Origin: Escherichia phage EP01
DNA length: 64,000 bases
Sequence record: OM135583.1
Strand: one strand, 5' to 3'
Position 1 is the stretch's first letter. Each line of letters begins with the position of its first letter. Below the pieces are notes generated by a model. That model was given only the letters and a program-made list of their open reading frames with translations, ran no database searches and had not been told where the DNA came from. Below, in pieces: positions 39,249-41,605 of the stretch. A program made the translations under genes and the position numbers.

Positions 39249-40109
39249 TTACACCGCCATTTTTCCTTTAATAGGAGGGTGTGATTCGTAACCTTTAAGA
39301 ACGAAATCTTTAGGCCTGAGTTTAAGAATGTATTCCAATTGTTCTTTAGTAGAAAGATAGCGGAATTTATAAGGCAATCCGCCTATTACCAGTTCACAAA
39401 GCTCTTTAGGTTCACGACGCAAAATTTCTTTACATTGTTCTACGTGATTCATATAGATATGAGTATTACCGCCAGAAAATATCAAATCTCCTGGAATAAG
39501 ATTACACATCTTAGCTACAATATGAACCAACACAGCATATGATGCAATATTAAATGGAAGACCGAGGAAAACATCTACTGAACGTTGGTACCACTGTAAA
39601 TCCAAATATCCATTACGCACATTAAACTGATAAAACATATGACAAGGCGGTAATGCCATATATTTAAGTTCAGCTGGATTCCACGCCGACACAATTTGTC
39701 GCCTATCATTCGGCAGTTTTTTAATACGATCAATAACTTCTACAATTTGGTCTACACCACCAAAATCACGCCACTGTTTTCCATAAATTGGACCAAGTTC
39801 ACCGCTATGGTATCCTAAATCTTTTGCTTGATTTTCGTAATTTTCATCCCAGACTGTTTTGCCTTGAATTAATGAATCATGCTGAATTAATCGTAAATCA
39901 TTTACGTTAGTACTTCCTGACAAAAACCATATTAGCTCAGCAATACAAGCTTTCCAGGCGAGCTTCTTAGTCGTTACTGCAGGAAAACCTTTAGTTAAAT
40001 CCCAGCGTAATTTAGTACCGAACAAAGCAATTGTTCCTGTGCCCGTTCGGTCATCGGTTTCATAGCCATTTTCAAAAATGTCTTTAATTAAATCTTGGTA
40101 TTGTTTCAT
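39249..40109 (-). CDS. td: thymidylate synthase, intron-less
   Basis: 286-aa uninterrupted ORF (MKQYQDLIKDIFENGYE...); no intron or I-TevI ORF. Confidence 0.95.
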   Translation of the reverse strand: MKQYQDLIKDIFENGYETDDRTGTGTIALFGTKLRWDLTKGFPAVTTKKLAWKACIAELIWFLSGSTNVNDLRLIQHDSLIQGKTVWDENYENQAKDLGYHSGELGPIYGKQWRDFGGVDQIVEVIDRIKKLPNDRRQIVSAWNPAELKYMALPPCHMFYQFNVRNGYLDLQWYQRSVDVFLGLPFNIASYAVLVHIVAKMCNLIPGDLIFSGGNTHIYMNHVEQCKEILRREPKELCELVIGGLPYKFRYLSTKEQLEYILKLRPKDFVLKGYESHPPIKGKMAV

Positions 40110-40154
40110 TTAGTACCTTATATAAATTATAATACATTTTATGAAGCTAAATAA

Positions 40155-40505
40155 TCAATACGGTTTAGCATCAAATTTTCTTTCGATTTCAGGAGTGAAA
40201 TATAATTCTTTACCACGTTTGGAAAAGCGACCAATAATATGATAATTATTCTCATCAAACGTGATATTGCCGATATCCATAGCTTTCAACCAAATATCGA
40301 TATTTCTGTCAAGCTTTATATCAAAATTCCAATACGGAGAACTATTACCGAAAATACTGCAAGCGGATTCAGTGCAATAACTGCTGCTATAAATCTTGTC
40401 TTTGGGAACTACTAATTGATAGACGCCTTTAATAAACTGAGGACCCTGCCATTTTGGTTGTTTCGCGTCTTTTTCTAATAGAATAGGGTAATAATTAAAG
40501 TTCAT
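40155..40505 (-). CDS. hypothetical protein in a frd-td insertion (116 aa from ATG; 120 aa from upstream GTG)
   Basis: ORF with no recognisable motif lying in 416 bp that separate frd and td; weak SD; Cys pair YCTESAC. Confidence 0.5.
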   Translation of the reverse strand: MNFNYYPILLEKDAKQPKWQGPQFIKGVYQLVVPKDKIYSSSYCTESACSIFGNSSPYWNFDIKLDRNIDIWLKAMDIGNITFDENNYHIIGRFSKRGKELYFTPEIERKFDAKPY

Positions 40506-40525
40506 ATTTTCTGCCACGCGTTATT

Positions 40526-41352
<827 letters not shown>

Positions 41353-41362
41353 ATTATTTTCC

Positions 41363-41605
41363 TTAAACAGACTTTTTCACAGTTTTCCAATCAGCTTTAA
41401 ACTGTTCAACATCAGAATGGTAAATCCAAAACCCTGCGCTTTCTCCATCCTCATAAAGAGGGCATCCATCGCATTCATCTTCCCATCCCATATCACGCAA
41501 AAGAAGTTCAGCTTTTTCAACAAGTTCAGAATCTTTACCGATGATATTAAAATACCATTTACCTCTAACTTCTGAATCTTTGATGCTCTGGCGTTGTAAT
41601 CTCAT
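41363..41605 (-). CDS. hypothetical protein, 80 aa
   Basis: ORF with AGGAG SD behind an early promoter. Confidence 0.5.
   Translation of the reverse strand: MRLQRQSIKDSEVRGKWYFNIIGKDSELVEKAELLLRDMGWEDECDGCPLYEDGESAGFWIYHSDVEQFKADWKTVKKSV

Follow-up and report, generated by a model that had tools for sequence, protein, structure and literature searches.

In phage T4 the genes for dihydrofolate reductase (frd) and thymidylate synthase (td) meet in a 4-nt ATGA overlap: in the reference record (NC_000866) frd occupies 145109-145690, td starts at 145112, the overlap spans 145109-145112 and no ORF lies between the two genes, as stated in the original prediction for this locus. In the T2H entry (AY262132.2) a small gene in this position carries the name td.1 (ABI48932.1), and its counterpart in RB14 is RB32ORF229c (YP_002854567.1), for which the GenBank note reads 'flanked by 9 bp repeat'. 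We analyzed the corresponding locus within 64,000 nucleotides of Escherichia phage EP01 (OM135583.1), and this whole stretch is called the window below. Its source is a Tequatrovirus (T2/T4-like), with the closest records being 96-98% identical over 12 kb.

The frd-td interval in the window

On the minus strand the window shows the order gene 32, small ORFs upstream of frd, frd, the td.1 ORF, td, nrdA.2, nrdA.1 and nrdA. The gap between frd and td measures 416 bp (40110-40525) and td.1 is the sole long ORF within it. The coordinates originally given for the gap, for the 116- or 120-aa minus-strand ORF and for the 9-bp repeat around it were all confirmed. The features of the locus, all on the minus strand, are as follows.

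40526-41107, minus strand: frd, coding for dihydrofolate reductase (193 aa) and lying upstream of td.1, from the ORF listing; 94.8% identical to T4 Frd
40526-40528, minus strand: TGA stop of frd, read from the sequence
40524-40532, minus strand: left copy of TAAATGAAA, in which the final sense codon (AAA) and the TGA stop of frd are joined by an overlapping ATG-AAA
40506-40525, minus strand: frd-td.1 spacer of 20 nt, from the sequence and alignments with T2H, RB14 and NHEP29
40521-40523, minus strand: TAA that closes an upstream in-frame td.1 start
40515-40517, minus strand: alternative GTG start within the frd-td.1 spacer
40155-40517, minus strand: td.1 from the alternative GTG, 120 aa, from the ORF listing
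40155-40505, minus strand: coding sequence of td.1 with its stop codon, 116 aa when started at ATG, from the ORF listing; member of phrog_1928
40110-40154, minus strand: td.1-td spacer of 45 nt, with sigma-70-like hexamers and the td Shine-Dalgarno sequence
40153-40158, minus strand: sigma-70-like hexamer TTGATT, part of a promoter-like match (9/12 over both hexamers)
40129-40134, minus strand: sigma-70-like TATTAT, overlapped by TATAAT at 40126-40131, part of the same promoter-like match
40116-40119, minus strand: AAGG, Shine-Dalgarno sequence for td
40104-40112, minus strand: right copy of TAAATGAAA, made up of TAA followed by the td start ATG-AAA
40107-40109, minus strand: ATG start of td
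39249-40109, minus strand: td (thymidylate synthase, 286 aa, intronless), the downstream neighbour, from the ORF listing; 93-99% identical to the two T4 Td exons

The Shine-Dalgarno-like sequence in the spacer between frd and td.1 is weak and reads GGCAGA in the window, GGCGGA in T2H and GGTGGA in RB14. The spacer in front of td contains a segment of around 30 nt (about 40120-40149) that, according to the alignment, is present in T2 and RB14 and missing from the compact allele of NHEP29. Judged from its sequence, this segment may provide the T2-type alleles with an extra td promoter. A TTTAGCTTCA stretch within the same segment, the one with the TATAAT and TTGATT hexamers, resembles the MotA box of T4 middle promoters. 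Considering the fact that td.1 lies inside the gene 32-frd-td-nrdA block and that no terminator-like site was found within 39900-41500, co-expression of frd, td.1 and td, as had been proposed for this nucleotide-metabolism operon, is plausible.

Two further features of the operon differ between the T4-like phages. The td gene of the window lacks an intron, while T4, N2, G3F9 and a metagenomic relative possess the td group I intron with I-TevI. Since N2 has both td.1 and the intron, the presence of the one is not linked to that of the other. Upstream of frd, an 81-aa ORF (41107-41352, minus strand) overlaps the frd start with its end via TAATG and is assigned to phrog_3183 (E 5e-43), a family of unknown function. 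The records of N2, AdolfPortmann and RB14 have it annotated, and it was left unannotated in the T2 entry AY310907. T4, where the distance between frd.1 and frd is only 71 nt, does not have it, which makes it a second T4-absent ORF of the same operon.

The small ORF had been put forward as the best candidate in the window for an undescribed accessory gene, a description that does not hold considering the T2H and RB14 entries cited above. The T2H protein is 97% identical to that of the window and represents the same gene at the same frd-td position, the window allele having one extra codon (SSSYC versus SSCF). Identical proteins (100%) occur in the phages FL33 and vB_EcoM_SP1. A megablast search with the region returned 355 phage records that cover the td.1 region almost fully, and a tblastn search with the protein recovered 362 records at 90% identity or more, including T2, T6, RB3, RB14, RB18 and RB27. 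In around 360 Tequatrovirus records the product is labelled hypothetical protein, and the same holds for all named members of its 90% cluster. The protein matches the profile of phrog_1928 (unknown function) over residues 8-116, i.e. the full length (E 1.3e-33), and the family profile built in this analysis with E 2e-33. Phrog_1928 also takes in both tandem paralogs of other genera (see below) and carries no functional annotation. The window ORF is therefore the already catalogued, function-unknown gene td.1 / phrog_1928. A literature search on td.1, RB32ORF229c, phrog_1928 and the frd-td interval yielded nothing; a 2010 review of T4-related genomes mentions frd and td nowhere but in a gene table, and a preprint on a phage accessory-gene screen makes no mention of the frd-td locus.

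The coding sequence is clearly maintained. Comparison with five Tequatrovirus orthologs gave 5-18 synonymous and 0-3 non-synonymous differences, which corresponds to a dN/dS of 0.00-0.04; the range within the genus is 0.00-0.05. Against a 61%-identical homolog the ratio was 0.07-0.12, with dS being saturated. Thus, td.1 is a real gene under strong constraint.

Distribution of td.1 and the origin of the T4 junction

Homologs of td.1 (27-46% identity) were found directly after frd in Kanagawavirus, Jiaodavirus, Gelderlandvirus, Kagamiyamavirus, Winklervirus and Marfavirus. The family also resides after frd and before td in Providencia phages and in every metagenomic contig examined. The fixed position thus holds for the contexts examined, which cover at least seven named Tevenvirinae genera and the metagenomic contigs. 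In five of the six genera listed (all but Jiaodavirus) the second ORF after frd is a td.1 paralog (hmmsearch E 7e-19 to 3e-26) that likewise belongs to phrog_1928; in one locus (L023) the family member that was looked up was itself the second ORF after frd. The tandem paralogs are often followed by an ORF of 68-70 aa that precedes td. Several of the genomes outside Tequatrovirus show stop/start codon overlaps between the genes of the interval, including overlaps with frd. Across genera, identity to the window proteins was 27-61% for td.1, 44-54% for Frd and 74-80% for Td. The identity of td.1 is in line with that of Frd, which indicates that it diverged along with its neighbours. Neither tblastn nor the homolog searches recovered a donor of more than 65% identity outside Tequatrovirus. 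All copies in the contexts checked were located between frd and td, and no paralog was found elsewhere in the window. The family is tiny: a word-indexed search gave few members, and an exhaustive search of 1.84 billion proteins recovered 41 cluster representatives, all of 37-139 aa.

Within Tequatrovirus three alleles could be discerned at this locus. The majority allele carries td.1 (around 362 of around 514 records). The second has a 68-aa ORF only (G3F9 type) and was found in around one fifth of the sampled records. The third is the empty junction of the T4 type, found in about one tenth of the sampled records, a figure derived from 6 such cases among 60 evenly sampled records. In all, td.1 is absent from T4 and around 30% of its relatives. 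Given its absence from T4, the gene is dispensable.

Several side observations concern the variability of the interval. The 68-aa ORF (MSNKLKV..., phrog_9550) of phage G3F9 lies at 798-1004 of the extracted locus (L013) and was also located in two other loci (L012, 3148-3354; L007, 3173-3379). In Marfavirus and Kanagawavirus it occurs just before td, together with td.1 homologs. The identity amounts to 94-96% in JS98 and in a Dhakavirus record, suggestive of recent exchange, and to around 40% in Phapecoctavirus-like phages of 150 kb. In Enterobacter phage Entb_45 (L007, 2002-2516) frd is annotated as two pseudogene fragments, and the td.1 homolog and paralog downstream are intact. In the Providencia phages (L015 and L016, 3415-6266) and in another locus (L021), Frd and Td are only around 30% identical to those of the window and may represent replaced versions. 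There, a phrog_1928 member of 136 aa is still present and overlaps the frd end, and three more small ORFs (71-81, 76 and 185 aa) lie ahead of td.

Perfect copies of the 9-bp repeat TAAATGAAA (TTTCATTTA on the plus strand) are present at 40524-40532 and 40104-40112. The ATG within the left copy is in frame with td.1 and is closed in the window by the TAA at codon 3. The same is true of T2, in contrast to RB14, where this ATG is open in frame (MKYRGVENMNFNYY...) and gives a td.1 of 123 aa. Because the upstream frame is closed, translation of td.1 in the window and in T2 must begin at the internal ATG. NHEP29 has no 20-nt spacer, its frd and td.1 being joined by a direct ATGA overlap, and its td.1-td spacer is only 15 nt, a compact layout that resembles the arrangement of other genera. 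The 9-mer is not rare in the window, as gene junctions commonly have the context TAA-ATG-AAA: 10 copies were counted in the 64 kb versus 3.2 expected, a three-fold enrichment, and 0 of 100 shuffles reached 10. In RB14 one extra A before the usual stop of frd (L020, 297-911) adds 11 codons, yielding a protein of 204 aa whose gene runs into the start of td.1; either a genuine variant or an error in sequencing could account for this.

When the stretch enclosed by the two TAAATGAAA copies is taken out of the window sequence, exactly the junction of T4 is left. T4 carries orthologous flanking genes (Frd 95%, Td 93-99% identical) and an identical junction sequence outside the missing segment, and together with that segment it lacks td.1, the spacer and the promoter-like element. 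Such an exact collapse fits a deletion in which short repeats recombined or slippage occurred between them. Given that td.1 homologs sit at the same spot in other genera and that the occupied allele prevails in Tequatrovirus, the ATGA overlap of T4 appears to be a derived minority state. We therefore consider it very probable that T4-type phages lost td.1 by a deletion between short stop/start junction repeats, and that the repeat represents the shared start context of consecutive genes and not a target-site duplication. Taken as a whole, the best explanation, and one we regard as likely, is that the td.1 family is ancestral between frd and td and constitutes a small gene specific to T4-like phages. 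As co-infecting phages may exchange alleles both ways, some of the td.1-positive genomes may have regained the gene by homologous exchange.

The reverse scenario had been proposed originally: a gene-sized insertion that split the classical T4-like ATGA overlap and duplicated 9 bp of its target. The perfect direct repeat around the segment, which was also flagged by the annotators of RB14, the resemblance of the T4 junction to an 'empty site' and the extra spacer DNA of the T2-type alleles (24 nt after frd and around 30 nt before td) that is missing from the compact NHEP29 allele are in keeping with such an event. Nevertheless, a recent insertion is very unlikely and is largely refuted by the outgroup distribution, as at least seven genera harbour the family at this very position, with a divergence parallel to that of Frd, and the occupied allele is the majority one. 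In addition, no transposase, integrase or nuclease motif was found (Pfam, NCBIfam, PHROG), no copies were present at other loci among the contexts checked and the window holds no paralog. The supposed target duplication consists of a motif that is common at gene junctions (10 copies in 64 kb), of which the left copy is the in-frame td.1 start in RB14, and the frd-td.1 boundary of NHEP29 is an ATGA, consistent with start contexts of consecutive genes. The deletion in T4-type phages thus remains the preferred reading.

The Td.1 protein and its putative role

The AlphaFold2 model of Td.1, obtained with ten homologs, is of moderate quality (pLDDT 77.8, pTM 0.72) and consists of beta strands with one helix (residues 69-77). 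The predicted structure, a putative small beta-barrel with one helix between strands, would be reminiscent of the OB-fold binding domains. OB folds (p204 HIN, Teb1, RPA, S1, SSB, PriB) dominated the fold-search lists, with weak matches: a Foldseek search against the PDB gave nothing at E <1, the list being mostly OB folds. The matches within BFVD were only to uncharacterised proteins of T4-like phages. At the sequence level, no Pfam family matched the window protein at E <=10, in agreement with the earlier statement that it is not GIY-YIG or HNH-like, and for the 45 family members no consistent match arose at E <=1. The NCBIfam and PADLOC searches yielded nothing, and the best hit of a profile search against PDB sequences (E 0.1) looks spurious.

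Members of the family are mostly basic (pI 8-9.3) and 17% of their residues are aromatic. In the family alignment W19, G92, K96 and G98 are invariant and Q16, G27, Y29, F94 and F103 nearly so. The window protein has all the conserved family residues (W19, G27-x-Y29 and G92-R93-F94-x-K96-x-G98). Based on the order of the secondary-structure elements in the model, these residues would be located on the binding face of the OB-like barrel.

On basis of the above, the following role can be envisaged. Td.1 would be a soluble, mildly basic and aromatic-rich OB-like beta-barrel protein, of which the gene would share a transcript with frd and td, its translation following that of frd through coupling or reinitiation. 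Via W19, G27-x-Y29 and G92-R93-F94-x-K96-x-G98 it would bind a ligand, be it a nucleotide, single-stranded nucleic acid or a partner protein, and it would act as a non-essential accessory factor of the module for thymidylate and dNTP synthesis. We put forward this role of an OB-like ligand-binding accessory, co-expressed with Frd and Td, only tentatively. The link between Td.1 and the two enzymes is one of position alone, and gene order across the block is conserved in these phages anyway. The lack of td.1 in T4 and around 30% of its relatives fits an accessory role and a role in host interaction equally well.

A role in host takeover or anti-defence, in which Td.1 binds a host protein or a signalling nucleotide and the position between frd and td is merely inherited gene order, is a possibility that we hold to be about equally likely as that of a metabolic helper. 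Td.1 is small, phage-restricted and dispensable, its gene is part of an early or middle operon, tandem paralogs occur and a single Tequatrovirus locus harbours three alternative alleles (td.1, the 68-aa ORF or nothing), all of which would suit such a protein, and residues of the conserved kind, aromatic and basic, would be fitting for a nucleotide 'sponge' too. These features have to be weighed against the very strong purifying selection, with near-identical td.1 genes across hundreds of phages with different hosts, and against the strictly fixed locus with its translational overlaps with frd in other genera. Moreover, Td.1 showed no likeness to known anti-defence proteins with solved structures, neither in sequence (none below a PDB E of 0.1) nor in fold (no Foldseek PDB match at E <1). 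The PADLOC search was empty as well, but its library consists of defence and not of anti-defence proteins.

A more specific version of the metabolic role, which we regard as rather improbable, is that the td.1 family forms a dedicated third component of the dihydrofolate reductase-thymidylate synthase pair that was lost without lethal effect in T4. It is suggested by the observation that td.1 is always found between frd and td, even in the Providencia phages with their around 30%-identical Frd and Td, and further by its frequent tandem duplication and its translational overlap with frd. If true, Td.1 could be an OB-like homo- or heterodimeric adaptor that tethers thymidylate synthesis to ssDNA/gp32 at the replication fork, or, alternatively, could bridge Frd and Td to channel dihydrofolate.

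The weak OB/S1-like fold matches, the basic pI and the location of td.1 inside the very transcript to be regulated would also be compatible with an OB- or S1-like RNA-binding regulator of the translation or stability of the frd-td-nrdA mRNA. Such a function appears unlikely, however, given that there is no sequence similarity to the S1, cold-shock or RegA families and that T4 regulates the same operon without td.1. Finally, the product names 'putative homing endonuclease' (AdolfPortmann, bas44_0069) and 'putative glucose-1-phosphate adenylyltransferase' (SF2-1 and pSe_SNUABM_01), found in these three GenBank records only and without domain or fold support, can practically be dismissed, as neither a GIY-YIG, HNH, LAGLIDADG or nucleotidyltransferase domain (E <=10 for the window protein, E <=1 for 45 members) nor a fold match to such enzymes was found, the protein counts 116 aa and the distribution is fixed at one locus and not patchy.

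Implications for the T4-like phages

As a discovery the locus carries little weight, since the ORF, its name and the flanking repeat were already in the public records and hundreds of genomes annotate the product as a hypothetical protein. Its main implication is that the textbook frd/td ATGA overlap of T4 would be a derived deletion and not the ancestral state, which is relevant wherever T4 serves as the reference for T4-like genomes. In addition, phrog_1928 is strongly constrained and tied to the interval between dihydrofolate reductase and thymidylate synthase across many genera. Considering this constraint and the strict tie to one interval, the family makes a reasonable and cheap target for functional work.
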